Below, piece after piece: positions 27,006-44,576 of a stretch of DNA of 64,000 nt. Source of the DNA: Gemmatimonadaceae bacterium (GTDB taxonomy: Bacteria > Gemmatimonadota > Gemmatimonadetes > Gemmatimonadales > Gemmatimonadaceae); NCBI GenBank assembly GCA_051859245.1, contig JBHYGA010000001.1, forward strand, positions 1,213,722 through 1,277,721. Reading direction: 5' to 3'. The notes under the pieces are model-generated. The model saw only the letters and a list, made by a program, of their open reading frames with translations, made no database searches and was not told the DNA's origin. How positions within the stretch are numbered: position 1 is the first letter of the stretch; every line of letters begins with the position of its first letter. The translations under genes and the position numbers were made by a program.

Positions 27006-27079
27006 CGGGACGTAGCGCAGCCCGGTAGCGCACCTGAATGGGGTTCAGGGGGTCGCGGGTTCGAATCCCGCCGTCCCGA
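27006..27079 (+). tRNA. tRNA-Pro(GGG), integration target
   Basis: Acceptor CGGGACG/CGTCCCG; CCTGA-ATGGGGT-TCAGG. Confidence 0.96.
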
Positions 27080-27080
27080 T
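27038..27080 (+). repeat. att core copy 1 (43 bp, tRNA-Pro 3' half)
   Basis: ATGGGGTTCAGGGGGTCGCGGGTTCGAATCCCGCCGTCCCGAT; identical at 39931 and 46593. Confidence 0.95.
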
Positions 27081-27243
27081 TGTGTAGGTGATTGATTGAT
27101 AACCACTTAGCCTCGGCGCATCGCCGGGGCTTTGTGCTGCTCGGGGGCGCCGGAAGAACACCGGAATATCGCGTGCCACTTTCGAAAGTCGTCTCTTGCG
27201 TCATCGTCTGACGTCGGGCCTCTTGCCGTTCCTGTTCGGAGCT

Positions 27244-27444
27244 TTAGAAGAGCAAGAAGAGCAGTGCGCCCCCGATCATGACCTGAGCCCCCTCCTTCAT
27301 CATTCCCGAATAGTGCCGACGGTCATGGTCGCTGCTTTCAGCGGTAATGCCGAAGGCATTCCCCGCCACCATCACAAAGCCGAATCCGAATACTAGAGCC
27401 CCGAGCGCTTTCATTAGTTCATCTCGCTGTTGTTGTGAGAGCAT
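27244..27444 (-). CDS. Small two-TM membrane protein
   Basis: ALGALVFGFGFVMVAGNAFGI and VMIGGALLFLLF. Confidence 0.5.
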   Translation of the reverse strand: MLSQQQRDELMKALGALVFGFGFVMVAGNAFGITAESSDHDRRHYSGMMKEGAQVMIGGALLFLLF

Positions 27445-27499
27445 GCCGGTTGGAAAAACTACGCCCAACCCTAGCGCGCCGCTAAGTGGGCGCGAGAGG

Positions 27500-27670
27500 T
27501 TGCGGGAAGTGCAGGGAGCGCGATAGTGTTCGGTGCGACGACTACTCTGCTAGGATCGAGCTCGACGCAAACAGACAATCAGGCGAGCGGCTTAAGTGCC
27601 AGGACTCGTACAACACAACCAGACTGAGGGGATTCCTCGGGGTTGTCGTTGTTCGGGTCCTTTTGCTTTT
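27500..27670 (+). promoter_or_regulatory. Promoter plus leader with terminator hairpin before the xis-like gene
   Basis: TTGCGG-N18-TAGTGT; long hairpin AGGACTCG...CGGGTCCT (27601-27661) followed by TTT. Confidence 0.5.
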
Positions 27671-27685
27671 GCTCCCGGAGTTGCA

Positions 27686-27955
27686 ATGACCTCGCTCCCC
27701 GCAAGTGTGACAAGCGTGCCGAACGTGACAAGCGTGTCGGACCCGCGCCCGATTTCTACGGCGCTGCTTACCACTGCACAAGCCGCCAAATACCTTGCGC
27801 TCGGACAGCGCACGCTTGAGAACTGGCGCTGTCGCGGTGTCGGTCCCGCGTTCGTTCGACTGGGACGCGTCGTGCGCTACCGCGTGTCGGATCTCAATGC
27901 GTGGTTGTCGGTGCGTACGTTTGCCAGCACCTCGCAGGCGGATCACGCGGCATGA
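27686..27955 (+). CDS. Excisionase/AlpA-like HTH_17 protein
   Basis: LLTTAQAAKYLALGQRTLENWRCRGVGPAFVRLGRVVRYRVSDLNAWL; RBS GGAG. Confidence 0.88.
   Translation: MTSLPASVTSVPNVTSVSDPRPISTALLTTAQAAKYLALGQRTLENWRCRGVGPAFVRLGRVVRYRVSDLNAWLSVRTFASTSQADHAA
27704..27739. repeat. Four 9-bp iteron-like repeats
   Basis: AGTGTGACA AGCGTGCCG AACGTGACA AGCGTGTCG. Confidence 0.65.
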
Positions 27956-28644
27956 CACACGACGCAACGACTACGCCGGACGATGACGGCGCTGAGCATG
28001 AGACAGACCCGTTGTGGTGTTTTGCGCTTCCTCGCATCGGCCGGCGCACAACGCGTTGGTTCGCACTACGACTCCGCGCGCAGCTGGCGTTCGCGGTCTT
28101 GACCCCCTGCCGCTCGTCGACGATCGACCAACTGCGCGCGGGGCTCGCTGAGCATCTTGGCGCCAACTGGCGATCGCTCAGCCCCGAAGCGGTGACGTTG
28201 CTTGCGAGGTGGTACGCTGTATGTGCTGAACGCTACCTGTCCTTTCGTCCCGCCAAGCAGTATTTAGGCCGCGGCGCTGCGATCGGCGCCTACCGGGTGT
28301 TTTGGGAGAGGGTGGTTGGTGACCTGCCGGTGGCGCTGCTGCAGCTTGGCGTGCCACTGGCGCCAACAGCAACGGCGCCGCCAACGACCACGCTTGAGCG
28401 CGAAGGGGCGGCACTACCACTGCCGGACGACTCGCGCGAAGTGAGCGGCTCGACGCTGCTACCGTCCGCCGTCCGTGACTCGCTCCGCAACGCCGCAGCC
28501 CAACGTCGCGCACGATGGCCGCGTGCGTGTCGTGTGTGTGGCACGAGTTTCACGCCAGAACGTGCGAATAGTCGTCGTTGTATTGCGTGTCGTCGGGCGA
28601 GGGGCGCTGGTAGAGCACGGGGCGCCGACGAACGGGAACAGTGA
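27952..28644 (+). CDS. Hypothetical protein with C-terminal Zn-ribbon
   Basis: ATGA overlap with xis; CRVCGTSFTPERANSRRCIAC. Confidence 0.6.
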   Translation: MTHDATTTPDDDGAEHETDPLWCFALPRIGRRTTRWFALRLRAQLAFAVLTPCRSSTIDQLRAGLAEHLGANWRSLSPEAVTLLARWYAVCAERYLSFRPAKQYLGRGAAIGAYRVFWERVVGDLPVALLQLGVPLAPTATAPPTTTLEREGAALPLPDDSREVSGSTLLPSAVRDSLRNAAAQRRARWPRACRVCGTSFTPERANSRRCIACRRARGAGRARGADEREQ

Positions 28645-28703
28645 TGCGCATTGACGTCGTCGATTGCGCTGCGAGGGCTCGCGGTGTGCGTGTAGATTGT
28701 CTC

Positions 28704-28952
28704 ATGCCGCCGCGTCGCGTTCTTCGTCTCCGATTGCGCGAGCTCCGTGAGAACGCGGGGTTCAGTCAAGAGGCTGTGGCGCTGGCGCTCGGAACGCGAC
28801 GCGCCCGCATCAGTGACCTAGAGACGGGCGCCGTGCAGCGTGTAGATGGCGTTCTGCTCGCCGGGCTCTGCGAGTTGTTCGATGTCGAGCCCGGCGCATT
28901 GTTCGTCTGGGAGCGCGTCACCACGCGAGGCGAAAAGCCTACGCGGCGGTAA
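28704..28952 (+). CDS. XRE/Cro-family HTH regulator
   Basis: LRLRELRENAGFSQEAVA..LGTRRARISDLETG...LCELFDVEPGALF. Confidence 0.85.
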   Translation: MPPRRVLRLRLRELRENAGFSQEAVALALGTRRARISDLETGAVQRVDGVLLAGLCELFDVEPGALFVWERVTTRGEKPTRR

Positions 28953-29439
28953 GCGGCGCTGCGCTCTCTGTTTCGTCATCATCGTCAAACCCTTTGATGG
29001 GTTGCGGAATGGCGAACGGATCGAGCGTCACCAATCGATCGTCACCGTGTTCGTTGAACGCAGCGTCATTAGCGCCCTGCGCCTGCACTTCGCGCACAAG
29101 TGACAGGAGACACTCAGCGAAAAGCGCGAGCTCCGAAAGGCCCGTTTTCTTCGTCTTCAGCTTCAGCTCTACGTGCTCTTCTCGGCTCCCGTCGCGTTTG
29201 TAGAAGAGGCTCTTAAGGGTGAGTGACACCGCAGCAAAATCCTGCTTGTCGTAGCGGAGCCTGCCACTCACGGAGCTCATCGCCACCGTCCTGCCGTCGC
29301 GCACTTCACGTTCGTGCAATGCGTAGACCCGCGCTGCGCAGGAACGGTCCGTGGCAATGTTTGCGTGCGTCGTTGTATCCCACGGCTCGTACTGCGTGTG
29401 CGTCGAGGCGGCGTTCGCGGCCTTGGTCGTGCGTGGCAT
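28939..29439 (-). CDS. Hypothetical protein
   Basis: RBS AAGGAG and its own sigma70-like promoter. Confidence 0.65.
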   Translation of the reverse strand: MPRTTKAANAASTHTQYEPWDTTTHANIATDRSCAARVYALHEREVRDGRTVAMSSVSGRLRYDKQDFAAVSLTLKSLFYKRDGSREEHVELKLKTKKTGLSELALFAECLLSLVREVQAQGANDAAFNEHGDDRLVTLDPFAIPQPIKGFDDDDETESAAPLTAA

Positions 29440-29492
29440 GGTGGCTCCTTGCAGTTGGTGAGCGGTGCGGCGCCGTGCGCGTCGCGGTCTCC

Positions 29493-29521
29493 AGTGTACG
29501 TTTATGCGTACAAGCGCACAA
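29493..29521 (-). promoter_or_regulatory. Sigma70-like promoter with overlapping palindromic operator
   Basis: TTGTGC-N17-TACACT on the minus strand; TGTACG-N6-CGTACA at 29495-29512. Confidence 0.6.
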
Positions 29522-29817
29522 GGTCGCGCGCCACACGTTCTTCAAGCAAAAGGCGTCTTGGGCAAGCAGTGGGGTACTGCGTTGGTGTAGGTTGCGGGTG
29601 CGCGCGTTGCGCGCGAAAAGAGCCCGGCCGCACAGTATAAGTCTCGGCTGTGACTTCCCCAGCCGTCGCGCGTCGACTGGGGAGCGGATCTTGTGCCCGT
29701 ATTTCCGGGTAGGTACCTTCAGGACAAAATGACCTCGGATCGGAGCCTATCGGCGAGTCTCCCCTGCGCTTAGGCACCGATTCTTTGGAAAACTTATGAA
29801 GCTGAGGATGTTTCTGT

Positions 29818-30114
29818 CTGTCTGAATCCGAGCAGGACTTCGAGGCGCCGGATTACGTCAACTTTGCCGTTCTCACGCGGCGCGGGTTGGACGTAGCCCT
29901 ATCATTAGGGTACGTGGATCCGGGTAACGTGGCGCAAGTAGCAAAAATAGATGGCGAGGAACAGTCCTTGACGCCGATTGCGCTGCAAGGCCGCTTCGTT
30001 ATGTCATTAGGCGGCTTCGCCGCACTACATCGCGAAGTGGTTCGCCTTGCAAGCCAGCTGGAAGCAGAGGGCTTCGACATCGCTAGCCTTCATTTCGAGG
30101 AGACAGATTCTTGA
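29818..30114 (+). CDS. DUF3467-like small protein
   Basis: Frame open from CTG 29818 (GAGGA upstream): DYVNFAVLT..DVALSLGYVDP...RFVMS; stop overlaps next start. Confidence 0.5.
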   Translation: MSESEQDFEAPDYVNFAVLTRRGLDVALSLGYVDPGNVAQVAKIDGEEQSLTPIALQGRFVMSLGGFAALHREVVRLASQLEAEGFDIASLHFEETDS

Positions 30115-30578
30115 CAACCGGGTTAGCAAAAATTGCGTCGCAGAGCATCGGCGCGCCGAAGGCTTCGTACGAATACCAGGTGGCCAAGACTAGTCGCGTG
30201 CCTGACGGTAACATTCGGAAGCACGTTGACATGTTGCTTTATGAGGAGAGCCTGAGGCAGCGCCTCGCTGACACCGTGACGCAGCTGCGCGAAATATTGC
30301 GCGCGGTTGCGAGCACCACGGTCACCTCTCTGTTGGCCCTCGCTCAGCCGCATTTCCCTAATGCCGAAGCGCGAGTCATCGAGAACGAGCAGTGGGCTCC
30401 GAGCAGTGGTATGGAGTTTGCGCGAATCGTGCTCTATTACGGGCTCCCGGATGAAGAGCACATCTCTGAGCAGATTGCTGAGCACCACGCCGCTGTCCGC
30501 GATGCATTCGTAGACTCTCTCCCGTCTCCGTTCGGACACCTTTTTGTGCTCGATAGACGCCTCAACAGCCCGCTGTGA
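30111..30578 (+). CDS. Putative antitoxin partner of the HEPN gene
   Basis: Middle gene of a coupled operon directly before HEPN; no clear motif. Confidence 0.5.
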   Translation: MTTGLAKIASQSIGAPKASYEYQVAKTSRVPDGNIRKHVDMLLYEESLRQRLADTVTQLREILRAVASTTVTSLLALAQPHFPNAEARVIENEQWAPSSGMEFARIVLYYGLPDEEHISEQIAEHHAAVRDAFVDSLPSPFGHLFVLDRRLNSPL

Positions 30579-31007
30579 ATGGGAACGTCGGCTGACGAGC
30601 TGAAGGCTGCGGCGGATTGGTTATGCTTTCAATGGAAGGAAACGAGCTTAGCGGATGAGGCTAAGACACGTACCGCCGCGTCGCGCGCCTACTATGCTGC
30701 TCGGGCTCTTGCGCTGCAGTGCTTTGAAGAGGGAAGGGGACGCGATATTAGCGCCGCGAAACACCGTCCGTTTTGCACATGGCTTCGCGACAGCCAAGTT
30801 AAGACTTTGAATCAGCTTGGGGTGGATCTTCGCGAGCTGCTAGACCAACGGGCGACAGCGGATTATGACTGCAAGACCGCTCTCAAGTTCGGTGACGTTA
30901 GTCTGAAGTATACACCCTTCAGCTCGTGGTTTCGAAAGCGCGCGGAGCTCGTAGCGGCATTCTCGCAAGACAAGCGCGCCCTAGATCCAGAACTCAGCGC
31001 ACCGTAG
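30579..31007 (+). CDS. HEPN-domain protein (putative RNase toxin)
   Basis: RTAASRAYYAA...H...LRELLDQRATADYD. Confidence 0.75.
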   Translation: MGTSADELKAAADWLCFQWKETSLADEAKTRTAASRAYYAARALALQCFEEGRGRDISAAKHRPFCTWLRDSQVKTLNQLGVDLRELLDQRATADYDCKTALKFGDVSLKYTPFSSWFRKRAELVAAFSQDKRALDPELSAP

Positions 31008-31042
31008 CTACAGGACGACTGAAACACGCCGGTTTCGAGAAT

Positions 31043-31082
31043 CCCCCCCGTTCCCTCACGGAACGAGGGGTTCCGTTTTTTC
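31043..31082 (+). terminator. Terminator after the HEPN operon
   Basis: CCCC-CGTTCC-ctcac-GGAACG-AGGGG followed by a T-tract. Confidence 0.6.
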
Positions 31083-31295
31083 TGCGTATGAAAGAGTGCC
31101 TGGAAGGTGACAATGACTCGTTTGGCTCGCCGCAGACGTATTAAGCACGCGGCGGAGGTGCGTGCTCGCATCGATGCACAGCGGGCGCCACCACACGACT
31201 CCGTCGTCACGCGCTGTACGGTTGATGGCCTCGATGAGCGCCGCGCGATCCGCGCAGAGCATAACAGCGGTGGACGATAGGAAGAGGTAGCGCAT
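31056..31295 (-). CDS. Small hypothetical protein
   Basis: TATCAT 6 nt before ATG (leaderless-type start). Confidence 0.35.
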   Translation of the reverse strand: MRYLFLSSTAVMLCADRAALIEAINRTARDDGVVWWRPLCIDASTHLRRVLNTSAASQTSHCHLPGTLSYAEKTEPLVP

Positions 31296-31374
31296 GCCGA
31301 CATGATACGGCGAGGCGTCACGGCGGTGTCACTGCTCGCTTGCGTGGCGACCGCCGACTGGGCGGCGGCACAAC

Positions 31375-31546
31375 TTGCGCACCCCTCACTCTCTCTCTAT
31401 TTTAGTCTAAGCTAAGTTCGATCACCGCTTCGGCGGCCCGGTCTTGGCGCCGTGCAAACGGAAACGTCGGGCCAGAAGCGGTTCCTTCTGCTGCACCCGG
31501 TCATACAACGCTCTCCCGCGAGAGCGTCTGTGTGCCCGGGTTTTTT
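31375..31546 (+). promoter_or_regulatory. Promoter plus structured leader RNA plus terminator before the replication operon
   Basis: TTGCGC-N17-TATTTT; stems ACCGCTTC/GAAGCGGT, GGCCCG/CGGGCC, CCGT-GCAA-ACGG; hairpin 31495-31541 then TTTTT. Confidence 0.6.
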
Positions 31547-31573
31547 GCGTTCATTCCCATCTCTGGAGGTCCC

Positions 31574-31786
31574 ATGCCGGTTCTTGCTGCACCTCGCGTC
31601 CCGCTGATGCAGGCCGCGCTCAAACTCGGTTGGAACTACAACCGCACACGCGACGGCATTCTGTGCGGTCATCTTCGCGGCGAACAGGATGACCGGGGAC
31701 GGTGGTACGTCGACGCGGAGTCTCTAGCGTCCGCAATCGCTGCGCGCTCAACTACGGTCGGCACTGCATCCGCCACACACCCTTAA
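31574..31786 (+). CDS. Small excisionase/MerR-like DNA-binding protein
   Basis: RBS GGAGG; LMQAALKLG...GHLRGEQDDRGRWYVDAESL. Confidence 0.65.
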   Translation: MPVLAAPRVPLMQAALKLGWNYNRTRDGILCGHLRGEQDDRGRWYVDAESLASAIAARSTTVGTASATHP

Positions 31787-31849
31787 CGCACGAACGCGCG
31801 ACGGGGGCTGTGGGGCCCGTATCCGCCGCGCGTTCATGGAGACTGACAG

Positions 31850-32191
31850 ATGAAAAGTAGCAACTTCCGTCGACAGTTGAAAGCGACTCTGCGCGTATCT
31901 CCGGACAACAGTCTGCCGGCGCCACCGAGGATACTGCCGTTCCGGCCGCGCGAACCCCGGGGTACGCTCCGCGGCGACACGCACTCGACGCACTGGGACA
32001 TCCCGACAAGAACACGCGACTTGGCCTGCTTCGCACAGTTTCTCGAGGAACGCTGCGTCGCGCGGCTCGGCGATTTGCGGCTCGCGCTGGTTGACCATCT
32101 CGTTCAGCAAAATGGTGCCTCTCGTCGCAGCGTGACACGGGATGTGTACGCGCTTTTGCCGCCAGCCCGCGACACGGGAGACGGTCGATGA
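31850..32191 (+). CDS. Hypothetical protein
   Basis: RBS GGAG; ATGA overlap with next gene. Confidence 0.5.
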   Translation: MKSSNFRRQLKATLRVSPDNSLPAPPRILPFRPREPRGTLRGDTHSTHWDIPTRTRDLACFAQFLEERCVARLGDLRLALVDHLVQQNGASRRSVTRDVYALLPPARDTGDGR

Positions 32192-32562
32192 ACGCCGGTA
32201 CTCGACGCCCGCCACGCCGCCAACTGCGTTCGGTGTCGCGCGGGAATGACGCGCTGGCGTTTCCAGTTGGTCACGAAGCGGCGGTGCGGCTCGCCGATCT
32301 ACAGCGGGACGAGTCACTCGCCCATTCGATTTCGAACATTCTCGCCCCGACCAATAGCACGCTGCACGGAGAACGTGGTCGGACGGTACGATTGCTCGCT
32401 ACCCTCGCCCACGAACGCAAGCTTTCTTGGCGGACGGCACGTCGCGTGCTCGTTGCGCACAGCACCTTCGAATGGGATCGGGGCGATCCCAACGCGATCG
32501 CCGACGCGCTCGAAGCTTTAGCATACGAGCGCGTGCGTCTGCGTGACACGGAGGCCGCATGA
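32188..32562 (+). CDS. Hypothetical protein
   Basis: ATGA overlaps on both sides. Confidence 0.55.
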   Translation: MNAGTRRPPRRQLRSVSRGNDALAFPVGHEAAVRLADLQRDESLAHSISNILAPTNSTLHGERGRTVRLLATLAHERKLSWRTARRVLVAHSTFEWDRGDPNAIADALEALAYERVRLRDTEAA

Positions 32563-33641
32563 GCGCGTGCCTTTGGTTGGCGCCGTTGCCGACGACCCGC
32601 GCACTTGACGACGAGGCAACGGGGTACAGTGCACTCGCGCACGCTCTCGCTACGTTCGCTGATCAGCGCTTGGTCAACCGACGCGACGTGTGGGGCGGCT
32701 ACTGGCCCAACGGTATGCGCGAAACGCTCGGCAAGGTCTACACGGCGCCGCGCGTGAAGGACCGGGGACGCGTGTTGTTGGCGCCATCGGTACTGCGCCA
32801 ACACTTCGCGTCACGCGATGCCGGTGACGTGATCGGTCTGCATTCCACGAGTGAATCCGATTCGTCGCGCTGGCTCGCGTTTGACATCGACGCGCACGAC
32901 GAAACGGTGACGCCAGAGACCACGCGATTGAGTGCGTGCTATCTTGCGGAACGCCTCGCGGAGCGCGGTGCTGCGGTGCTGCTCGAAGACTCGGACGGCG
33001 CCGGTGGGTATCACGTTTGGATCCATTTTGAGGCGCCAGTTGCAACCGCTGCCGCCTACGAATGGGCGCGGCGGCTCGCGGATGATTGTGCGTCGGCGAC
33101 TGGACTGCGGCCCGAAACATTCCCCAAGCAAGCGAGCGCCGCGGGTGCGTTCGGCAACTGGCTGCGTTTACCGGGGCGCCATCATACGCGTTCGCATTGG
33201 TCGCGGGTGTGTCGTCCTGGCGAAGCGTGGGCGAGCGGTGCCGACGCCGCGACGTGCGTGCTCTCGTGGCCTGCAACGCCTGCGGACGTCGTACCGCCGG
33301 TCGATGCATGGCCGCAACCGCAGCGCGTACACACACCGCTGGTGGTGGCAACGAACGATGCGCCGACCGATCGTGCGCGCATCATTGCCGCGTACGTGCG
33401 CCGCCTTCCGCACGGCAAGGCGGGCAGTGCACGCTCCGACCGTCTCTTCAGTCTCGCGCGGTTTCTTCGCCATGGCATGCAGTGCAGCGACGCCGAAGCG
33501 TTGCCGGTGCTGCACGCGTGGAATAGTGGCAACGCCCCGCCACTGCCTGAAGCCAAGGTGCTGATCACATGGCAAAACGCGGCAACCTATGCGAGCCGCC
33601 CCGTCGCTGTCCGTGTAAGCGGGAGGCGTCATGCAGCGTGA
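32559..33641 (+). CDS. AEP-superfamily primase with PriCT-like C-terminus
   Basis: WLAFDIDAH, EDSDGAGGYHVWIHF, ETFPKQ, GNWLRLP; C-terminal RSDRLFSLA...WN...PPLPE. Confidence 0.82.
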   Translation: MSACLWLAPLPTTRALDDEATGYSALAHALATFADQRLVNRRDVWGGYWPNGMRETLGKVYTAPRVKDRGRVLLAPSVLRQHFASRDAGDVIGLHSTSESDSSRWLAFDIDAHDETVTPETTRLSACYLAERLAERGAAVLLEDSDGAGGYHVWIHFEAPVATAAAYEWARRLADDCASATGLRPETFPKQASAAGAFGNWLRLPGRHHTRSHWSRVCRPGEAWASGADAATCVLSWPATPADVVPPVDAWPQPQRVHTPLVVATNDAPTDRARIIAAYVRRLPHGKAGSARSDRLFSLARFLRHGMQCSDAEALPVLHAWNSGNAPPLPEAKVLITWQNAATYASRPVAVRVSGRRHAA

Positions 33642-35304
33642 CGATCCCGCGCTGAGCGCCATTCGCGAGCAGGATCGCGCGCGCGGTCACGACTCGCCCT
33701 CCCCCACGGTCTCTGCACTCGAAGCACGCGTCGACCTGGCATCGGGCGCGGGATACATCACGGTGCGTTGGGATCGCGGCGAGAAACGCCCCGCCGTCAC
33801 ACTGGTCATCGATGGTGCGCCGGTTGGTGTTGAGCGGTTCGATCTGCTGAACGTGCGCGCCCGCACCCGGTTCGCCGAGATGGCGCCGGACGCGCTACGC
33901 GCAGAGACGGAGCGCGCGCTGGTTGATCTGGCCCTGCGGCCACCGCCCACCACACGCGTCGATGAACCGTCGAGCCGTGCGGTGCTGGTCGCGGATGACG
34001 AGCCGAGCGACGAGCCGGTTGTGCTCGGCGACGTGCTGCACGCGGCGCGCACGGCGTTCACACGCTACGCCGTGTTGCCTGCGCATGGCGATATCGTGCT
34101 AACGCTGTGGGTGGTCGCGACACACTTTGTGCAGCACTTGCACTACTTCGGCATTTTGCATGTGCAAAGCGCGGTGCGAGAGTCCGGCAAAACGCGCGTC
34201 CTTGAGCTCGTGCATTTGATGTCGGCGCGGTCGTGGTCGCTCGTGCAGCCGACGATGTCGACACTGTTTCGCGTGATTGAAGCGAAAGCGCCAACGGTGT
34301 TGATCGACGAAGCCGACACGTTGTCCCGAGAGCAGATCTCCGACTTTACCGCGCTACTGAACGATGGTGTTAAGCGCGGCGGGTGCATCCCGCGCACGGC
34401 CGAACGCTCGGATGGCTCCTTCGAAGTGGAAGGCTTTGCGATCTACTGTCCGAAGGCGATCGGCTCTATCGGCGTGCCATTTACTGACGCGACGGTGAGT
34501 CGGACGATTCGCCTCGTGATGGATCGCGCGGATCCGTCGGCTCTTGCGCGGCTGACACCGTTTCGCATGGATCGCGCGGAACAACGGTGGGCCCGATCGC
34601 TTCGGCGCCAGCTGGTTCGCGCGGGCAACGATTATGGCGAGCGGTTGGCCGCGCTGCTCGATGTGGGCGACGACGACGAAACAAACGTGCCGCTTCCGGC
34701 CGGTGTCGATGGACGGCAAGCGCAGATTTGGGAACCGTTGTTGGCGCTCGCGGATCTCGCGGGCGGCGAGTGGCCGGTGCTCGCCCGGACTGCGTGTCTG
34801 CACTTTGTGTCCGCGCTGAAAGCGGCAGAGCCAGCGGACCCGAAGGTTCGGCTGCTGAGCGATTTGCGCGAGTTCTTCCATGAGAAGCCGAGCATCGCGT
34901 ACGCGACGTCTGAACAGATTATCGAGTTCCTGATTGCCGACGAGGCGCGGGGCTGGTCAGAGTATCGGCGCGGTCATCCGATCACGCCGCATCAGCTCGC
35001 CCGGTTGCTGAAGCCATTCCGCGTGCGCCCCGCGATTCAGCGCGCGAGCGAACTACCGCAAGGGCGAGCACGAGCATGGGCACGCGCCGAGCTGGAGCCC
35101 GTGTGGGAGCGACTCGCACCACAAAGCGAGACGATTGACGACGCCGCAAACCCGACAGCGCACAGCGCCTCCGGTGTCACGGATGTCACGCTTGTCACGG
35201 ATGTCACACTTGCCAGTGACACAAACGATGTCGGTCCCGGCCTCGAAGTGCTGCCTTCGAGCTACTGGGATGCGTACGATCTCCTCCACGAGGACGCCGC
35301 CTAA
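33631..35304 (+). CDS. DUF3631-domain P-loop ATPase (replication helicase-like)
   Basis: Walker A SAVRESGKT, Walker B VLIDEAD, RQAQIWEPLLALADLAGGEWP, ITPHQLARLLKPF. Confidence 0.82.
   Translation: MQRDDPALSAIREQDRARGHDSPSPTVSALEARVDLASGAGYITVRWDRGEKRPAVTLVIDGAPVGVERFDLLNVRARTRFAEMAPDALRAETERALVDLALRPPPTTRVDEPSSRAVLVADDEPSDEPVVLGDVLHAARTAFTRYAVLPAHGDIVLTLWVVATHFVQHLHYFGILHVQSAVRESGKTRVLELVHLMSARSWSLVQPTMSTLFRVIEAKAPTVLIDEADTLSREQISDFTALLNDGVKRGGCIPRTAERSDGSFEVEGFAIYCPKAIGSIGVPFTDATVSRTIRLVMDRADPSALARLTPFRMDRAEQRWARSLRRQLVRAGNDYGERLAALLDVGDDDETNVPLPAGVDGRQAQIWEPLLALADLAGGEWPVLARTACLHFVSALKAAEPADPKVRLLSDLREFFHEKPSIAYATSEQIIEFLIADEARGWSEYRRGHPITPHQLARLLKPFRVRPAIQRASELPQGRARAWARAELEPVWERLAPQSETIDDAANPTAHSASGVTDVTLVTDVTLASDTNDVGPGLEVLPSSYWDAYDLLHEDAA
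35175..35221. repeat. Four 9-bp iterons (putative ori) at the 3' end of the DUF3631 gene
   Basis: TGTCACGGA TGTCACGCT TGTCACGGA TGTCACACT, plus inverted GTGACA. Confidence 0.7.
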
Positions 35305-35753
35305 TGGCGCGCCGTGCAAAGGATGATGCGAACCTCGGCCCGAAAAAAGCCGAAGAGAAAGCCGTGAAAAGGGCACCAAACACGCCGTCCGACGACGCGC
35401 CGCCGTCCGAGCCATCGGCCGAACCGATGCAACTCGAAACGCCGAAGCACGGCAAAGGACTGCTCCGCCGCAGTGGTGTGTCGCCCGGTTCGGGACGGCG
35501 CCCCTCCGCGCTCAGAGCGATCGCGATGAACGGTGTTGATCGCGCGTTGCCGCAGATCCAAGCGCTTGCCGAAGCAGGCGGGCCGGACGCGATCCCAGCC
35601 TTCAATGCGCTGGTGAAGGTCGCGGGATTGGACGGCCGGATTTCGCCGGCCGACGTGCGCGAACGCTTACGGGCGCAAGTCGAAATGATTCGCTCCCGCT
35701 CACAGTGGACACCACAAGAGCTGCTCGATCAGCTCGGGGAGATTTGGAGATGA
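35304..35753 (+). CDS. Putative small-terminase-like protein
   Basis: G/P/R-rich motif PKHGKGLLRRSGVSPGSGRRPS then helices; lies directly after the rep genes; homology unverified. Confidence 0.45.
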   Translation: MARRAKDDANLGPKKAEEKAVKRAPNTPSDDAPPSEPSAEPMQLETPKHGKGLLRRSGVSPGSGRRPSALRAIAMNGVDRALPQIQALAEAGGPDAIPAFNALVKVAGLDGRISPADVRERLRAQVEMIRSRSQWTPQELLDQLGEIWR

Positions 35754-38206
35754 CAATGCCGGCTATGACGCCGCCACCGGCGCCCCCTCGCGCTCGCCCA
35801 CTCTCGTTCGAAGAATGGAAGGCTGCGGGGAAGCCGACGGGCGCACCCGATCAGCGGGAGCGCAGGTCGCTAGAAGAGATTTTTGGGGACGAGAGACCCG
35901 CGGCGCCGAAGGAGACGCCAGGACACCTCTCGGGCATCGCGGGTCAGCTTGCACAAGGCGTGACGTTCGGTGCCATGGCGCCGATTGCCGGCGCCGCTGG
36001 AACGGTTGTGCGCAAGATCCAAGGGGATGGCCGACCGATCGGTGACATCTACACGCAACTGCGCGACGATTATCGCGGGCATGATGACACCTACCGCGAC
36101 GCGTACCCGAAAACAGCGTTTGCCGCGAACATCGTCGGCGGTGTCGCCTCGCCTGCATCATCGGCGTTGAATGCGGTGAGGGTGTCATCGAAAGCGGGAA
36201 TGCTCGCCAAGGCCGCCAACGCCGGCACGCAAGGGGCCCTCGCTGGCGCCGTAGGTGGCGCCGCAAATGCTGACGACGGCAAGGTGTTGGGCGGGGCGGT
36301 TGGTGGCGCCGCACTAGGCGGGATGCTCGGTGGTGGCTTCAGTGTCTTTACTGACGCGATGCGGCAGGGAATGCGCGTCGTTGGTGCCGGTCCGCGCGCC
36401 GCGGGTGATCCGTCGGTGATCGGACGTATGCGGAGCGCGGTTGGCGCCGAGACGGCGGAAGAAAGCGCGGCGCGGCGTGTGCTGCGATTGGGTGAGCAGA
36501 CCGGGCGCACCGTCGACGACTTGCGCAATGCGAGTGCACAGGCGGACGATCCGACCATTCTCGCCGAGTTGTACGGTCCGAAGGGAGCACAGCGTTTGCG
36601 TACGGTGCGCTCGCTTGGCAATACCGCGCGCGAACAAGTCGACGAAACACTCAACGATCGCGCCAGTAATGAGACCGCGCGTTTGCGTGCACGATTCGGC
36701 GAGCTGACTGGTGTCGAGCAGCGCGACGCGGGGGACGTTGCCAAGGGTGCCATGGCGAAGACTGAGCCCGACTACTCGATGCGGTACAAGCTGGCGAACG
36801 AGATCGCGCTCCCGGAGGACGCGGCCCGCGCGGTGGCGGACATCATTTCGCCCCTCGACGTGGACGGACTGAACATTTCCGGCATGGCGCGCAAGCTGGG
36901 CAACATGCCCCAGACGCTGACGGCCAAGCCGAAGGATCCGGCTGGCCCGGGTGCCGTGGCAGAATCCGCCGTGGAAGGCGTGCGCCGCGCGTACCAAGAG
37001 GCGAGCGAGCGCGCGGCCATGCTCGAATCGATGGAAGGGCTGGTCAATCAGGTGGATGCCGACGGACTCCGGACGCGCAGCACGAACATGACGCCTGCTA
37101 TGCGCCGAAAGAACACGATGGCGAAGAAACGGCCGACGGACGAAGTGCTGTCGCGTGGCGAAAAGCGCGAGCTGGGGATGGATCTGACCGAAGATGCGCG
37201 GGCGCGGATTGAAGAGGCCGGCATGTCGGTTGAGGAATACCGCGCGCTGGTCCGTGAAGGGCGCGACGCGCAGCGCCGACTGCCGGCGCTCGAACAGCGA
37301 TTGCAGCAGGCGCAGGGGGCCGCGGATCGCGTGGCGCCGAATGACGCGCCACCGCTGCCGTCCACACTCGGCCAGGTACTCAACTATCGCAACGTGCTGG
37401 ATGCGCTGATTGAAGACAATCAGGCGACATCGTACGGGCGCAAGCTGAACGTGCGCCTAGTGCAGGCGCGCAACGCCCTCGATGCAATTGCGAAGTCCGG
37501 TGGTGGCGACCGCGAAGGCGCGCAACTTGTGCAAGAGGCCGACGAACTGTTTGCGAGTGCAAAGGCTGTCGGCGAGTCTTTCGCTGGCGGCATTCGTGCT
37601 GCGCAGAGCGGCGCCGGTCCAACGGCGGCTCGCATTGTGCGCGAACAACCCAATCAGGAAATGGCACGACAAGGCGTCGCGTCTGACTTTCTGCGTCGCC
37701 TCGGCAACGTCAACGATGAAGGGCGGATTTCAAACCCCGTTCCGACCATGGTTGGCGGACAGAACCGGCGTGACGTGGCGCGGATGGCATTCCCCGATGA
37801 CGACAGCTTCGGGCAGTTTCGCGAGTCGGCGCGCGATGTGGTCAAACGACTGGGCACACTGCGCACGGCAACCGGCGGCTCCCAAACGTCTGACAACGCG
37901 ATTGATGCGCTGTCGGAGTTTATTGATCCGTCCACCGTCTCCGCTGCGATGGGCGGAAGCCCGCTCGGCTTCCTGAGTCGCATTGCACAGAACGGCGCCG
38001 TTCGCAAAGTGTTTGACGCCAATGCGCGTGAAGCCGATGCCATGGCGCCGCTCCTGCTTGCGGGCGGTCCTGAGCAACTCCCGCGAAAGGACGCACTCGA
38101 AATGTTGGCGAAAATGGAGCCCTTCATTCGCGCACGGCTTGCGGCACAAGCCAACCGCGCGGGCGTCGTGGGCGGCACCACATCCAGCTACCTCAACCGG
38201 CGTTAG
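35750..38206 (+). CDS. 818-aa podophage internal-virion/DNA-ejection-like protein
   Basis: AQGVTFG..., Y..LRD.YR....Y....P, Gly/Ala zipper GALAGAVGG...GAVGGAALGGMLGG, long helical body, TGGSQT near C-terminus. Confidence 0.6.
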   Translation: MTMPAMTPPPAPPRARPLSFEEWKAAGKPTGAPDQRERRSLEEIFGDERPAAPKETPGHLSGIAGQLAQGVTFGAMAPIAGAAGTVVRKIQGDGRPIGDIYTQLRDDYRGHDDTYRDAYPKTAFAANIVGGVASPASSALNAVRVSSKAGMLAKAANAGTQGALAGAVGGAANADDGKVLGGAVGGAALGGMLGGGFSVFTDAMRQGMRVVGAGPRAAGDPSVIGRMRSAVGAETAEESAARRVLRLGEQTGRTVDDLRNASAQADDPTILAELYGPKGAQRLRTVRSLGNTAREQVDETLNDRASNETARLRARFGELTGVEQRDAGDVAKGAMAKTEPDYSMRYKLANEIALPEDAARAVADIISPLDVDGLNISGMARKLGNMPQTLTAKPKDPAGPGAVAESAVEGVRRAYQEASERAAMLESMEGLVNQVDADGLRTRSTNMTPAMRRKNTMAKKRPTDEVLSRGEKRELGMDLTEDARARIEEAGMSVEEYRALVREGRDAQRRLPALEQRLQQAQGAADRVAPNDAPPLPSTLGQVLNYRNVLDALIEDNQATSYGRKLNVRLVQARNALDAIAKSGGGDREGAQLVQEADELFASAKAVGESFAGGIRAAQSGAGPTAARIVREQPNQEMARQGVASDFLRRLGNVNDEGRISNPVPTMVGGQNRRDVARMAFPDDDSFGQFRESARDVVKRLGTLRTATGGSQTSDNAIDALSEFIDPSTVSAAMGGSPLGFLSRIAQNGAVRKVFDANAREADAMAPLLLAGGPEQLPRKDALEMLAKMEPFIRARLAAQANRAGVVGGTTSSYLNRR

Positions 38207-38379
38207 TTCAAATCGCGGTAGGAGAGACGACTACCGATGAGCCAACACAGGCCGATGAACGCCACGCACGCCGCTTCAAGGGGTTCGCCGTCAAGGGCGA
38301 GCCCCGCGATGGCGATGCACAGCAGTAGAAATCCGATAAAGACACAGACTCGTTGAAACGTGCTCAGCGTCGGCGGCAT
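38203..38379 (-). CDS. 58-aa two-TM membrane protein (not in ORF track)
   Basis: MPPTLSTFQRVCVFIGFLLLCIAIAGLALDGEPLEAACVAFIGLCWLIGSRLSYRDLN; stop overlaps the facing stop (TTAG). Confidence 0.65.
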   Translation of the reverse strand: MPPTLSTFQRVCVFIGFLLLCIAIAGLALDGEPLEAACVAFIGLCWLIGSRLSYRDLN

Positions 38380-38408
38380 AGCGAATGCGAAAAGGTGAGT
38401 GTGTGAGT

Positions 38409-39776
38409 TCAGCGCGCGGCGCGTGTGAATGCGAGCACTCTGGTGCTACTCGTTCCCGTCAGATACTGGTCGATCGTCTGCGCGATCGCGTCCGCGGCGT
38501 GGCGTACGGTGGCGTCTCTCACTTCACCGTATCGCGACGTCATGCCAGGCAGGGTGTGTCCCACGAGGCGCGCAATCACATGATCGCCGAAGCCGAGTTC
38601 ATCACGCGCCACTGTGGTGAACGAATGCCGCAGATCGTGCAGTCGGAGCGGCGCCGACTCCTCAAGTGCGGCCGCGTGCTTGACGTTCTGCCAGAGTCGT
38701 TTTGGGTCGACGACGTGCGTTCCCTGCGACGTGCCGGGAAACACATAAGGATTGTCCAGCTGTGGCGACTGCGCTCGAATGATCGCGAGCGCGGCACTCC
38801 CAAGCGGACGTTCGCTTCGGCCGCTCTTGGTATCGGTGAGCACCGCAACGCCACGCGCGAGATTGACCGCATCCCATCGCAGCGTCAGGACTTCTTGCTC
38901 TCGCCATCCGGTGACCACGAGAAAACGCAGTGCGGCAACGAGGACCGGATTCGCCGGTGTGAGCACGGGGCTCGCGGGCAATAAGAACGGCGCGCGCGAC
39001 GCGTACGGACCGCGCACGCGACCACTGTGCTTGGCCCGCCGCTGCGAGGAGACACCGCGTGTCTGTGCTTGCAACGTCGGCGTTGCCGGAAGCCCGACGA
39101 GCGCCGCGGCGCTGAGTGCTGAGCCAAGGCGCCCGTACTCGTCCGCCGTCAGGCTGCGACTCTTGCGCCGCTCCTCGAAGCGTTCGACATCAACGCACGG
39201 GTTGGTGTGTTTAGCGCGGTAACCGCGTCGCTCCGCCCACACAAAGAACGTCGACAACAGATCAACCGCGCGATTGGCGAGTATCGGGGTAGCGCGTCGC
39301 TCGCTATGCCAGCGCGCAACCGTCGCCTCGTCGACGGCCGCGAAACGCATACCGCCGAACGTGGGCGCGAGCGTCATGCGCCAGACCCGCTCGTATTCCG
39401 CGTGCGTGCGCGGCGCCAACTTGCCTTCGCGTTCTTTCAAGTAGTCGGGGAAGACATCGGCGAGCACCTGGCGCCCGCGTCCGTCGGCGTCGTCGCCTTT
39501 CGGATCGCGCCCTTCCGCAACATCGGTTGCAGCGCGACGTGCCAGTGTGCGCGCGGTGTCGACGGTAATGCTCGGGAACGTGCCCAGCGCGAGACGCCGC
39601 GTCGCGCTCGTGTTCGGCGCCTGATACTGAAACACGAACACGCGCCGGCCGCTCGCGTACACGCGCAATCCGAAGCCGCGTTGCTCCGCATCCCAGACGA
39701 ACACTTCACCGCGTGCGGGCGCCTTGGTGGCATCCACGGCGCGTTTGGTGAGCTTGATGTGCGAGAGCTTGGGCAC
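38409..39776 (-). CDS. int: Tyrosine integrase with N-terminal arm-binding domain (DUF4102/P4-like)
   Basis: FVWD....GFGLRV..SG...FVFQY; catalytic TGWR, TKSG, HDLRH, LVGH, SRY. Confidence 0.93.
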   Translation of the reverse strand: MPKLSHIKLTKRAVDATKAPARGEVFVWDAEQRGFGLRVYASGRRVFVFQYQAPNTSATRRLALGTFPSITVDTARTLARRAATDVAEGRDPKGDDADGRGRQVLADVFPDYLKEREGKLAPRTHAEYERVWRMTLAPTFGGMRFAAVDEATVARWHSERRATPILANRAVDLLSTFFVWAERRGYRAKHTNPCVDVERFEERRKSRSLTADEYGRLGSALSAAALVGLPATPTLQAQTRGVSSQRRAKHSGRVRGPYASRAPFLLPASPVLTPANPVLVAALRFLVVTGWREQEVLTLRWDAVNLARGVAVLTDTKSGRSERPLGSAALAIIRAQSPQLDNPYVFPGTSQGTHVVDPKRLWQNVKHAAALEESAPLRLHDLRHSFTTVARDELGFGDHVIARLVGHTLPGMTSRYGEVRDATVRHAADAIAQTIDQYLTGTSSTRVLAFTRAAR

Positions 39777-39930
39777 GGCGGAACCCCTGCGGTTAATCTT
39801 CCGGAATGACTCCGGAAGATACGGAGCGGGAATGTGGGAGCGGGTTCCGGGAAGATACGGGAACGTCTCCCCTCTGTAAATGCGATGGGGAGAGTATGTG
39901 CGGGAACTGGCGGGAACGCAAGTCCGCTGG

Positions 39931-39973
39931 ATGGGGTTCAGGGGGTCGCGGGTTCGAATCCCGCCGTCCCGAT
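39931..39973 (+). repeat. att core copy 2
   Basis: Exact 43-bp copy of 27038-27080. Confidence 0.95.
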
Positions 39974-40182
39974 GTTTGGAAAGTGCTGATTTTGTTGACG
40001 TTACAGTCCCTCGCTCGGCTTTCGCTGAGCGGGGGATTGTGCGTTTATGGTGGTTGACTGTGCGAGTAGTGTGCGAAATCGAAAAGCTGTGCGAGAAGGC
40101 CGGTTAGCGAGGGCTCGCGAGCCGCTGCGCGGGAGGATACCGTAAGCCGTCCTTCACCTTCCTTTCACCAACAAGCGAACGC

Positions 40183-40776
40183 ATGTCGTTAGCCCCCACG
40201 CTTCAAGCTCCCGAGCCGGAAAAGGCTGGTCTGTGGCCCGTCTTTCTTGGAGCGTTGTTCACTTTCACTGGCTGCAGGCTCATGGCCGCGACGGATGACG
40301 GCTTCGGAACGACTCTGATCGGTGTGGCGCTGCTGTCTTGGGGCTCCTATCGGCGGTGGATCGGCCCAAAGCGTCGTCGTCAGGCGATGGAGCAGGAGCG
40401 CGAGACCGTTTTGAACGATCCCGCTCGACTGCAGCGCCTCGAAGCCTACGAGAATGGCTCGTGGTTTGAGTCAGTGAAGCATCAGGACTCGTTTCTCACG
40501 GCACCATGCACGTGGTACACGCCCACTCCCTCGGGGCAGATCAAAGAGCGGGACGCGGGCACCCTGAACGTCAACGCGAAGGGTCTACGACTTTCTGGAA
40601 GCGCGCGGTCGCTCGACCTTCCATTCACGCGAATCGTTGGTATCACTGCGAAGCGCGACGGGCTGGTCGTGGAGAAAACCACGGGGCCTCACCTAATCAT
40701 CGCCGTCGAGGATCCCATTGAGGTTGCGCTCGCGTGCCAAGCCGTGAGCAGAGCGCGAGTCGTTGGCAAAGTGTAG
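40183..40776 (+). CDS. Membrane protein with PH-like C-terminal domain
   Basis: Two TM segments; DAGTLNVNAKGLRLSG...LDLPFTRI. Confidence 0.55.
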   Translation: MSLAPTLQAPEPEKAGLWPVFLGALFTFTGCRLMAATDDGFGTTLIGVALLSWGSYRRWIGPKRRRQAMEQERETVLNDPARLQRLEAYENGSWFESVKHQDSFLTAPCTWYTPTPSGQIKERDAGTLNVNAKGLRLSGSARSLDLPFTRIVGITAKRDGLVVEKTTGPHLIIAVEDPIEVALACQAVSRARVVGKV

Positions 40777-40831
40777 CGCTCCGCGGGAGAGGTGATGCTA
40801 GCCCTTAGTCCCTCAAGTCGATGCGCGTACC

Positions 40832-41131
40832 CTACTCTGACAGCTCTGCCGCAGTACGCGCGTCCATCTCTCTCAGGAATGTTTTGTACGCCTCGGGGCC
40901 GGCGAGCGAAAGTGCCATTTCTCGCGTCATACCGTCTCTCGTGTGCGCTTCAAAAGTGATTCCGTTGTCCTCCCCTGTCGTGCTGAGGTGCGCGGCGAAT
41001 CCGGTGCTGAAGTCCCACGGAATCCCGTTTGGGTAGGCCGCGCACGTGCTGGTGAACGTGATCTTGTGTACGCAATAGACGCAGAGGCCGACTGGTCCGC
41101 CGCCCTCGTGAGGGTTTCGCTTTCGTTTCAT
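40832..41131 (-). CDS. Small Cys/His-motif phage-type protein
   Basis: CVYCVH......CAAYPNGIP........H......DNGITFE. Confidence 0.55.
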   Translation of the reverse strand: MKRKRNPHEGGGPVGLCVYCVHKITFTSTCAAYPNGIPWDFSTGFAAHLSTTGEDNGITFEAHTRDGMTREMALSLAGPEAYKTFLREMDARTAAELSE

Positions 41132-41232
41132 TTCGATCCTGTTGAAGTAGCAAGCCAGTTCCAAGTTGCGGCGCGTTCGCAAACTTTCTTCTTTTTTGAG
41201 TTCATTTCACACCTAGTCGGGCCGGAGAAGAA

Positions 41233-41934
41233 ATGCGCGAATACGTAGGTCGAATGACGGTCGATTGGATGCGTGAAATAGTTTTCGACGATCACGCCGA
41301 CTCAAGGAACGATTTCGCTTCAGCTCTCCCAGATGAAGTCACGGCCGCGGTGCAAGCGTTAAGCGACGTGTACGGGGCGTTCCAAGACGTCGTGGCTCGT
41401 TTCCCTTCCGGCGAACGCTCCGCTACTGTTTTCGGCTTTTTGCATGTCGCTAACAACAGCCTCGTTGGCGCGCTCAACTTGCTGATGTCCGGCTACCTCG
41501 TTCCGGCCGGCAACCTAATGAGGCATTTCGCGGAGGCCTCAGCCATGGCGCTGTTGTGTTCGGAACAGACGAACGGGACGCTCGAATCGTATAGAACGCA
41601 TGGAATGAAATATCCATTTCATCATTCCATCGATCGTGTCTCGAAGAAAAAAGTTATGCAGGCGCTGGGTATTGAGCGCGACGAGTGGGAATCATTCAAG
41701 AAGTCTGCGAAGTTCTATGATCTGCACAGTCACGCTTCTGATATGGCCGTTGCTGCGAATATCATCTTCGACAATCCAGGCATGGTGGTGATGGGTGGCC
41801 AGTTTGATCCCGGGAAAGTTGAGCATTACAGACTCGAAAGCGCACAGATCACCTTCGCATCCGTGACACTGCTCGGATTGATGTCAATCGTGGAACGCCA
41901 CCTTATGGCAGCGCAGGGGAATCCTGATTCTTGA
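41233..41934 (+). CDS. DUF5677-like (HEPN-related) protein
   Basis: LLMSGY..PA.NLMRHFAE ... FYDLHSHAS. Confidence 0.5.
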   Translation: MREYVGRMTVDWMREIVFDDHADSRNDFASALPDEVTAAVQALSDVYGAFQDVVARFPSGERSATVFGFLHVANNSLVGALNLLMSGYLVPAGNLMRHFAEASAMALLCSEQTNGTLESYRTHGMKYPFHHSIDRVSKKKVMQALGIERDEWESFKKSAKFYDLHSHASDMAVAANIIFDNPGMVVMGGQFDPGKVEHYRLESAQITFASVTLLGLMSIVERHLMAAQGNPDS

Positions 41935-41970
41935 GTCGCAAATAAGCACTCCCTAAGCGGGTCCACTCAT

Positions 41971-44107: not shown

Positions 44108-44576
44108 GTAGGCTCAACAAAGTGCAGTGGACGGAGGAAAACTTGTCCGATTCTGATATTGCTGGACGGAGGTTCGCAGAAGACCTTGTCGTCTACTTCG
44201 CCGGGAAGCGCTATGGACTATCGCATTTCTGGAGGTACGAGTGACGATCAATGATAGACCTGTCGCACAACTCGGACTGGTTCTTGCCGCAGTGCCGGCG
44301 AACATAGTTCTGCGGACGCCGGATCAGAAGCGTCGAGGCCGCCAACCCGCACCGGATGTCTGTTAGCAAAGCTACTTGGAACTGTCGCGTAGGCAGCCGC
44401 AGCCCTTCCTCGCAACGCAATGTCAAGCGTTGGTCTTCAATGACTTGTTCGCATTGATGCAAAAGATCGCATCTCAGTTTGCCGTTCCTTCCATTCGCGG
44501 CGGTGCTGTAGTGAACGCGTTGTGGCATGCGATTCGCTACCTGCCCGTCCTCACCCACACGCCAGCCAGAGCGCTC

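Follow-up and report, generated by a model that had tools for sequence, protein, structure and literature searches.

Known phage satellites tamper with the capsid size, packaging specificity, gene expression or tails of their helper phages. Phage-inducible chromosomal islands (PICIs) are described in the SatelliteFinder scheme by five core components and typically carry no further structural genes, according to excerpts of de Sousa et al. 2023 (PMC10085698). On the side of DNA delivery, excerpts of a study of phage P22 (PMC10883804) describe the ejection protein gp16 as membrane-associated, with residues 476-609 dispensable for that association, and the prophage inner-membrane protein SieA as a block to injection; escape from SieA maps to gp16 and gp20, both ejection proteins, and partial resistance to SieA comes with E-protein genes of foreign origin. 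Here we describe an integrated island of 12.9 kb (27080-39927) in a 64,000-nucleotide (nt) stretch of a Gemmatimonadaceae bacterium (assembly GCA_051859245.1, contig JBHYGA010000001.1, positions 1,213,722 to 1,277,721; below, the window, from whose first letter positions are counted). The island is probably a phage satellite equipped with a DNA-delivery protein of its own, a reading that follows from its own integration and replication genes plus one gene of a podophage injection-module family. That gene encodes an 818-amino acid (aa) member of the family phrog_5880.

A candidate ejection protein of the phrog_5880 family

The gene and its upstream partner are as follows.

35304..35753, plus strand: 149-aa protein with no assigned family; disordered, basic, Pro/Gly-rich N-terminus, SPGSGR(R/K)PSA, four-helix C-terminal part
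35750..38206, plus strand: 818-aa phrog_5880 member, candidate ejection-type virion protein (phrog_5880 match, profile search, model, BFVD, hhalign)

An earlier note, made from the letters alone, had placed these two open reading frames (ORFs) directly after the replication genes with TAATG and ATGA overlaps, and the sequence reads so. In GCCTAATGGCG at 35299-35309 the DUF3631 gene ends in a TAA whose last base is also the first base of the ATG that opens the 149-aa gene, and in GGAGATGACAATG at 35746-35758 the latter gene stops at a TGA that overlaps with the ATG at 35750. The large ORF (35705/35750..38206) gives 833 aa from a GTG and 818 aa from an ATG. Its start is ambiguous between the ATG at 35750 with the ATGA overlap, the ATG at 35756 with GGAG six bases upstream, and the ATG at 35765, which is residue M6 and corresponds to the first residue of three close homologs. 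A word-based search found seven relatives of the 818-aa protein, and a profile built from the closest six matched 3579 representative proteins at E<=1e-3, mostly of 600-750 aa, from which we conclude that the large gene is real.

The same note had described the 818-aa protein as Ala/Gly-rich and helical with glycine-zipper segments, which was borne out. It contains 16.0% Ala and 10.9% Gly, small-xxx-small runs ([GAS]xxx[GAS]) occupy residues 126-198, and its AlphaFold model (mean pLDDT 81.5) is helical throughout, the confidence being low only where the glycine zipper lies (133-159, 190-214). From its N-terminus, the protein has a glycine-zipper module (about 60-207) and then a helical domain that runs to about residue 375; residues of about 375-515 form a coiled-coil insert, and the C-terminal domain (about 515-800) is again helical. 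The insert of 140 residues (375-515, nt 36872-37294) is an extra feature of the window subfamily and is absent from typical family members of 650-700 aa; it includes the near-invariant stretch RKNTMxKKRPTDEVLSRGEKRELGMDLTEDARARIEEAG. Wide fold searches with the model returned only coiled-coil look-alikes on residues 392-532 of the insert (Z<=7.5), and these were set aside. In BFVD there were 19 model matches at E<=1e-3, all with probability 1.00 and with TM scores of 0.18-0.45 over about 700-1020 columns, low values that we attribute to the length and the multi-domain, helical nature of the protein. All of them were unnamed or uncharacterised phage proteins except one, which was named only N-acetyltransferase domain-containing.

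The match of the 818-aa protein to phrog_5880 (3.6e-20; 1.1e-19 in the genome search) aligned residues 51-370 with positions 39-352 of the 661 in the profile. Our own profile was matched in two regions, one N-terminal (about 50-370) and one C-terminal (about 515-800), and many proteins of 650-700 aa covered both. All 17 relatives scanned from the profile search belonged to phrog_5880, and in 14 the match spanned the greater part of the family profile. None of 22 relatives had a Pfam family above the cut-off. No related loci of the window subfamily were found in viral, genome or metagenome contigs, and a tblastn search of 50,697 phage records with the 149-aa and 818-aa proteins gave no match; the phage homes of phrog_5880 were reached through more typical members of the family.

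In these homes, which include two cultured phages, the family keeps company with podophage-type virion genes. In Rhizobium phage RHph_I1_23 the order is portal, scaffold, capsid, phrog_2941, phrog_3287, two small genes, phrog_4287 'DNA ejection protein', a 334-aa protein, phrog_5880 and a cell-wall hydrolase. Microcystis phage MJing1, the other cultured phage, shares this arrangement, with a hydrolase of SleB type just upstream. Among the prophages, L031 has Ad3, Hc3, phrog_598 'DNA ejection' and an endolysin-domain protein before phrog_5880, and L036 has phrog_4287 and an endolysin-domain protein before it; at locus L045, phrog_2534 'released from the phage upon host infection' lies directly upstream. 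A prophage of the same bacterial family as the window (G184) runs TerL, portal, scaffold, phrog_2941, phrog_3287 and an endolysin-domain protein, followed by a 592-aa protein with two matches, one to phrog_26400 'DNA ejection protein' (1e-21) and one to the first part of phrog_5880. Since hhalign aligned residues 60-207 of the 818-aa protein with the N-terminus of this G184 protein at 99.3% probability, the glycine-zipper module appears to be common to otherwise different ejection-class proteins; L040 shows the same pairing of the module with phrog_26400.

In all, family members stand among the ejection-protein genes of virion modules in RHph_I1_23, MJing1, L013, L031, L036, L040 and L045, a placement that the window gene itself does not have, and lysozyme-domain virion proteins are encoded beside phrog_5880 in 7 phage or prophage loci. 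The earlier note had proposed looking for homologs in podophage internal-protein modules, and it is indeed beside DNA-ejection PHROGs and lysozyme-domain virion proteins that the relatives sit. Its 'DNA-ejection-like' call for the 818-aa protein is therefore supported by the phrog_5880 membership, by the synteny with podophage-type virion genes and by the module shared with phrog_26400, and phrog_5880 as a whole would be a family of ejection proteins.

Virion genes surrounded the family member at eight of the 16 loci from species genomes; one locus was a small island, two had the N-terminal module only in non-phage surroundings, and five were short or unannotated. IMG/VR yielded 278 stretches that encode a relative, and the counts that follow rest on the 80 loci kept (L046-L125). 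A hub, portal, capsid, scaffold or TerL gene was present in 45 of the 80 by blastp to reference proteins, and the portal started directly after phrog_5880 in 19 of the 23 contigs with both genes (hub ... phrog_5880, portal, scaffold, capsid).

The two loci with the N-terminal module alone come from two Rhodobacterales genomes and encode proteins of 513 aa (L030:9368-10909) and 497 aa (L039:9353-10846) with no phage genes nearby; one of them lies near an FtsK/SpoIIIE-like gene. These proteins speak for a use outside the virion, in which the 818-aa protein would work for the island at a membrane or in DNA transfer, in a way that has nothing to do with phage particles. The window protein, however, has both phage-family domains and not the module alone, and family scans of the island (Pfam, PHROG) showed no conjugation genes, so that we consider such a use highly improbable.

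Borders and gene content of the island

The remaining features of the island, from left to right, are these.

27006..27079, plus strand: tRNA-Pro(ggg), target of integration (ARAGORN; Rfam tRNA, 64.6 bits)
27034..27080, no strand: left attachment (att) site, a 47-nt direct repeat equal to the 3' part of the tRNA-Pro gene (repeat search; 98% identity to the copy at 39927-39973)
27596..27955, plus strand: HTH_17 (excisionase/AlpA-type) DNA-binding protein, 119 aa (PF12728, 4.2e-12)
27901..28644, plus strand: 247-aa protein, function unassigned, with a Cys-rich C-terminal end (ORF; weak PHROG matches only)
28641..28952, plus strand: XRE-type helix-turn-helix (HTH) regulator, 103 aa (HTH_31, 1.6e-11; HTH_3, 2.1e-9)
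28939..32562, no single strand: cargo region with ORFs of 166 aa (minus strand), 155 aa, 142 aa, 113 aa and 124 aa, without Pfam family
32559..33641, plus strand: protein with an archaeo-eukaryotic primase (AEP prim-pol) domain, 360 aa (PF22548 AEP-TOTE, 1.3e-14)
33631..35304, plus strand: DUF3631 protein, 557 aa (PF12307, 1e-30)
35175..35221, no strand: iteron-like array that the DUF3631 gene contains in its 3' end; the 9-bp unit TGTCACNNN occurs four times in tandem and is followed by GTGACA in inverted orientation (repeat search and sequence)
38409..39776, minus strand: tyrosine integrase with Arm-DNA-bind_3, 455 aa (PF13356, 4e-17; PF00589, 2.6e-14)
39927..39973, no strand: right att site, the second 47-nt direct repeat of the island (repeat search; genome position G000:C1:1253648-1253694)

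The two att copies are spaced 12893 nt apart. The island is a discrete, mobile unit, because 47-nt repeats of a tRNA end bound it, because it has its own integrase, regulators, prim-pol and DUF3631 protein and no structural PHROG beyond phrog_5880, and because the contents between the same att cores differ in G541, a genome of the same genus. On these grounds the earlier description of a satellite-like element stands. A PHROG scan of 10 island proteins found no head, tail, connector or lysis family, phrog_5880 being the sole phage-module match, and the family scans as a whole turned up no capsid, portal, tail or lysis gene in the island. In the assembled contigs of one possible source run the island had the same depth as its flanks, and no circle junction, empty-site junction or contig across the island was present among them.

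The prim-pol protein also matched phrog_21866 primase (3e-4) and, below the cut-off, NF040561 PrimPol (2.8e-8); the DUF3631 protein is presumed to be its replication partner. No locus related to the DUF3631 protein was found in viral contigs. An NCBIfam match of this protein to a podophage capsid scored 17 bits against a cut-off of 80 and was taken as noise. Two 18-bp units related to the TGTCAC/GTGACA array lie at 27707-27742, near the HTH_17 gene, and seven of the 11 matches to TGTCACRSW in the 64-kb window fall in the island. The repeats are candidate iterons, and those at 35175-35221 and 27707-27742 could be an origin or a protein-binding site.

Among the left-hand genes, the HTH_17 protein, the family to which we take AlpA to belong, is 85% identical to its G541 counterpart and 36% identical to the HTH protein of another island, that of G553 (see below), whose integrase is 35% identical to the one in the window; the 247-aa protein has a 66% identical copy in G541. 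The 142-aa cargo protein belongs to phrog_5176 (unknown function, 4.3e-7). Its gene abuts that of the 155-aa protein (30111-31007; stop and start at 30578/30579), and the two might form a two-gene cargo system.

A third att core, an exact copy of 43 nt of the tRNA-Pro 3' end, lies at 46593-46635 and defines a second segment of 6.6 kb (39973-46593) in tandem after the island. This segment has a lower G+C content (0.57-0.58), and blastp against reference proteins found no integrase in it. Its ORFs are as follows.

40183-40776, 41233-41934, 41971-42840 (minus strand), 42824-44107 (minus strand), 44376-45704: ORFs of the second segment

G541 has the same tRNA-Pro gene and also three att cores, with other contents in between (at 2741, 11702 and 15972 of L141, which is G541:C1:47000-66000, reverse-complemented). 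Its first segment, of 9.0 kb, resembles the second segment of the window. Its second segment, of 4.3 kb, contains only the left-hand regulators of the island (HTH_17 85%, 247-aa protein 66%, XRE 93%) and is without the cargo, the replication genes, the 149-aa and 818-aa ORFs and the integrase. The two types of island thus stand in swapped order in G541 and in the window, a difference that implies separate integrations. No relative of the 818-aa protein was found in any of 14 genomes of the same genus.

Other islands that carry phrog_5880

Two further islands, like that of the window, are 11.5-12.9 kb long, are integrated at a tRNA gene, have an Arm-DNA-bind_3 integrase and carry a full-length phrog_5880. 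The one in G553 (G553:C76, same bacterial family) is 11.5 kb long, lies between perfect 49-nt repeats at a tRNA-Gly gene and encodes an integrase, an HTH_17 protein, an AAA_25 helicase, a 416-aa protein, a 716-aa phrog_5880 protein (1.9e-46) and a TerS (Terminase_2 PF03592, 1.9e-10; phrog_51). The stops and starts of its 416-aa, phrog_5880 and TerS genes overlap, and its 416-aa protein has relatives in G067 and G298, encoded there immediately before the family member. The other (L044, Microbulbifer sp. NZ_CP185959) is 12.9 kb long, lies at a tRNA-Asp gene and encodes an integrase, a TerL (phrog_38, 6e-90), two unknown proteins and a 664-aa phrog_5880 protein (4.3e-70). Neither island had a portal or capsid match. 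They carry a real TerS or TerL, unlike the island in the window, and their replication genes differ from those of the window, with the AAA_25 helicase in G553 and none recognised in Microbulbifer. Three islands in two phyla and with different replication genes have kept this one virion gene, in two of them beside a packaging gene and in the window beside the 149-aa protein. A packaging gene near phrog_5880 recurs in that the TerS gene overlaps its end in G553 and the TerL gene lies three genes upstream of it in L044.

On a 7.2-kb contig of a second Microbulbifer species, Microbulbifer epialgicus (L034, 3103-5187), there is a phrog_5880 gene that very closely resembles the one in L044. The genes upstream differ from those of L044, a GmrSD_C nuclease-domain gene lies downstream, and the contig is too short to judge island status.

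The 149-aa protein

The earlier note had counted two virion-related genes in the island, a TerS-like and an ejection-like one. The ejection-like half of that claim is supported above; the TerS-like half is not. The G/P/R-rich motif that it mentions is present (LRRSGVSPGSGRRPSA), A, R, P and G together make up 43% of the protein, and the pattern LRR.G.SPGSGR.PSA is invariant in its three relatives, its own form being SPGSGRRPSA. These relatives, at 56-59% identity, come from metagenomes only. At cut-offs of E<=0.01 to 0.1 the protein could be assigned to no family of Pfam, PHROG or NCBIfam, and a search with the four-member family at E<=10 gave one HEAT_PBS match at 0.18 and nothing else; no TerS family was matched. 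Comparison of the family by hhalign with the TerS of RHph_I1_23, MJing1 and G553 gave probabilities of 0.1%, 0.2% and 0.9%. A family Hidden Markov Model found no relative among the ORFs of all fetched loci, no related locus was found in metagenome contigs, and no longer, fused forms were found. The structure model is poor (pLDDT 57.8), with the N-terminal 66 residues disordered and four helices at 69-147, and the best match in a fold search with it had a Z of 5.3. The Atlas clusters nearest to the protein are all viral (0.86-0.88); in some of them AT_hook is present in 15-22% of members, or DUF5681 in 43%, which we regard as leads only. A complex prediction for the 149-aa and 818-aa proteins scored 0.00 and gives no verdict.

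These results bear on the idea of a two-gene hijack module, in which the 149-aa protein as a TerS would redirect packaging while the 818-aa protein is swapped in as the ejection protein. The recurrence of TerS or TerL near phrog_5880 in the G553 and L044 islands and the viral character of the nearest Atlas clusters agree with it. Against it stand the lack of any TerS family match even at E 10, the hhalign probabilities below 1% for all three TerS, the absence of fused forms and of relatives in the fetched loci, and a poor model with no fold match above Z 5.3, and we find the idea doubtful in this form. The 149-aa protein, which is translationally coupled to the 818-aa protein, may still be a packaging or DNA-binding factor; none of the searches supports its identity as a TerS.

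A possible role in helper podophage particles

We give about an even chance to the reading that the window holds an integrative, self-replicating island of satellite type whose 818-aa ejection-type protein is loaded into the particles of a helper podophage. Under this reading, growth of a helper podophage would lead the island to excise, and it would replicate from its own origin by means of the prim-pol, the DUF3631 protein and the iteron-like repeats. Its DNA would then be packaged in helper capsids, and its ejection-type protein would be loaded in place of, or beside, that of the helper. At the next cell the protein would leave the particle, insert in the inner membrane by its glycine-zipper N-terminal module and complete a DNA conduit. 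A private version of the protein might deliver DNA where the ejection proteins of the helper cannot act, as when a helper prophage resident in the cell imposes SieA-type exclusion, and a cell with such a prophage is the host that a satellite would need most. We infer the helper dependence and packaging of the island, as well as the replacement of the helper's protein. The earlier note named evasion of superinfection exclusion, a changed host range and the poisoning of helper particles as possible purposes; the first is plausible by analogy, because escape of P22 from SieA requires changes in gp16 and gp20, as excerpts of PMC10883804 report.

A number of findings weigh against this reading. Neither TerS, TerL nor a pac or cos site is recognisable in the island, and the PHROGs label of phrog_5880 is 'unknown function'. 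A 105-sequence profile showed no similarity by hhalign to P22 gp16 (0.9% probability) or gp20 (0.2%). The hydrophobic segments of the 818-aa protein are mild, its best 19-residue Kyte-Doolittle mean of 1.38 being below classic transmembrane values. A sequence search of the PDB gave only two chance matches (E 0.031 and 0.6), and Foldseek of the model against the PDB gave nothing at E<=1e-3; of the PHROG and Foldseek comparisons suggested in the earlier note, those that succeeded were the phrog_5880 assignment and the 19 BFVD matches of the 818-aa protein, and those that failed were its PDB search and the PHROG search with the 149-aa protein. No helper is at hand in the window genome, as it contains no second phrog_5880 and no match to the phrog_156 portal or the phrog_3287 hub, and its TerL-like matches are weak only. 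Further, since G541 holds the reduced 4.3-kb relative between the same att cores, decay does happen at the tRNA-Pro site. Finally, in five of the seven IMG/VR contigs that hold both genes, the integrase begins 438-1220 nt after phrog_5880. Temperate relatives often have phrog_5880 as the virion gene closest to their integrase, so that an int-att end may have taken it along unused.

The points on the missing helper, the decay in G541 and the spacing of the integrase also favour a rival explanation, namely that the island is an integrative element, or a decayed chimera of a prophage end with replication genes, that retained or acquired the integrase-side end of a temperate podophage and carries the 818-aa gene as a passenger, without any part in its spread. 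In the window, too, the integrase begins about 200 nt after the 818-aa gene, on the opposite strand. Against this, the gene is an intact, full-length ORF with a confident fold, coupled to the replication operon by overlapping codons, and four relatives at 47-62% identity keep 150+ invariant columns. Moreover, the two other islands, from two different phyla and with other replication genes, kept exactly phrog_5880 without portal, capsid or hub, and in both of them the integrase lies at the opposite end of the integrated island. We therefore regard the passenger explanation as unlikely.

Another explanation is that the 818-aa protein acts as a decoy in the membrane of the host, where a homolog of an ejection protein would jam the conduit of incoming podophages, a dominant-negative exclusion that would shield both host and island. 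Satellites often carry anti-phage functions (in excerpts of PMC10085698), and in P22 exclusion is proven to act on the ejection conduit (in excerpts of PMC10883804); the 140-residue coiled-coil insert, missing from typical members of the family, could be read in the same sense. The position of the gene argues otherwise, as it lies in an operon of replication and packaging type, outside the cargo region, and its counterparts in the two other islands lie near TerS or TerL. Both conserved domains of the phage family are fully kept, and no known defence family was matched in the family scans, PADLOC not being among them. Overall, a decoy seems quite unlikely.

If the satellite reading with a helper-loaded ejection protein is correct and islands do load a private ejection protein, then entry into the next cell would be a further step at which satellite and helper compete. 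It would also provide a natural experiment on the extent to which exclusion and host range are determined by ejection proteins, a role suggested by the work on P22 SieA, and a first functional handle on phrog_5880, a large unannotated phage family of 3579 representatives. One of the three islands is in a genome recorded as a Microbulbifer strain, which may permit bench work. It is tempting to go further and propose a new class of podophage satellites, whose hijack module would combine a packaging gene with a private inner-membrane ejection protein for entering helper-excluding cells, and which would have emerged more than once, with two of the islands in the same bacterial family and the third in Microbulbifer; we put this forward as a speculation that probably goes too far. 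Full-text searches of the literature found neither a satellite with an ejection or internal virion protein nor an association of DUF3631 with satellites.

Comparison with known systems

Compared with PICIs of the SaPI and EcCICFT073 types, the island shares a size of about 10-13 kb, an integrase, an AlpA/HTH-type regulator, a primase-replicase, integration at a tRNA end and the lack of tail and holin genes. Three of the five PICI core functions are present (integrase, PF00589 and PF13356; regulator, HTH_17 and XRE; primase-replicase), with the primase-replicase counted as a functional analogue from Pfam matches and not by SatelliteFinder profiles. Integrase, regulator and primase-replicase together make up the 'Type C' set in excerpts of PMC10085698. 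The island differs from PICIs in having no capsid-morphogenesis gene and no recognisable TerS, and in replicating, presumably, by an AEP prim-pol and a DUF3631 protein.

The likeness to the internal virion proteins of T7 type (gp14-gp16; phrog_342) is more distant. The MJing1 relative shows a weak match (6e-6) over the glycine-zipper module to phrog_342 'internal virion protein with endolysin domain', and lysozyme-domain proteins are the neighbours of the family in the 7 loci mentioned above. The window protein, in contrast, has no lysozyme domain and no significant phrog_342 match.

The gene order of P22 (4, 10, 26, 14, 7, 20, 16, sieA) differs from that of the IMG/VR contigs in which the portal follows phrog_5880, and gp16 stands among virion genes, whereas the window gene lies in an island without any other virion gene. 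In the Atlas feature search, the nearest cluster with a Pfam family was Phage_P22_gp16 (PF26808; 0.95, 167 shared features), which is a lead only. Like gp16, the phrog_5880 relatives are large, helical and last in the ejection set after the tail-hub genes, a slot that they hold after hub genes of the Ad3/Hc3 or phrog_3287 type. An N-terminal part suited to a membrane may be a further likeness, gp16 being able to associate with membranes without its residues 476-609 (excerpts of PMC10883804). As the large last member after the hub and ejection genes, phrog_5880 would thus be the positional counterpart of gp16.

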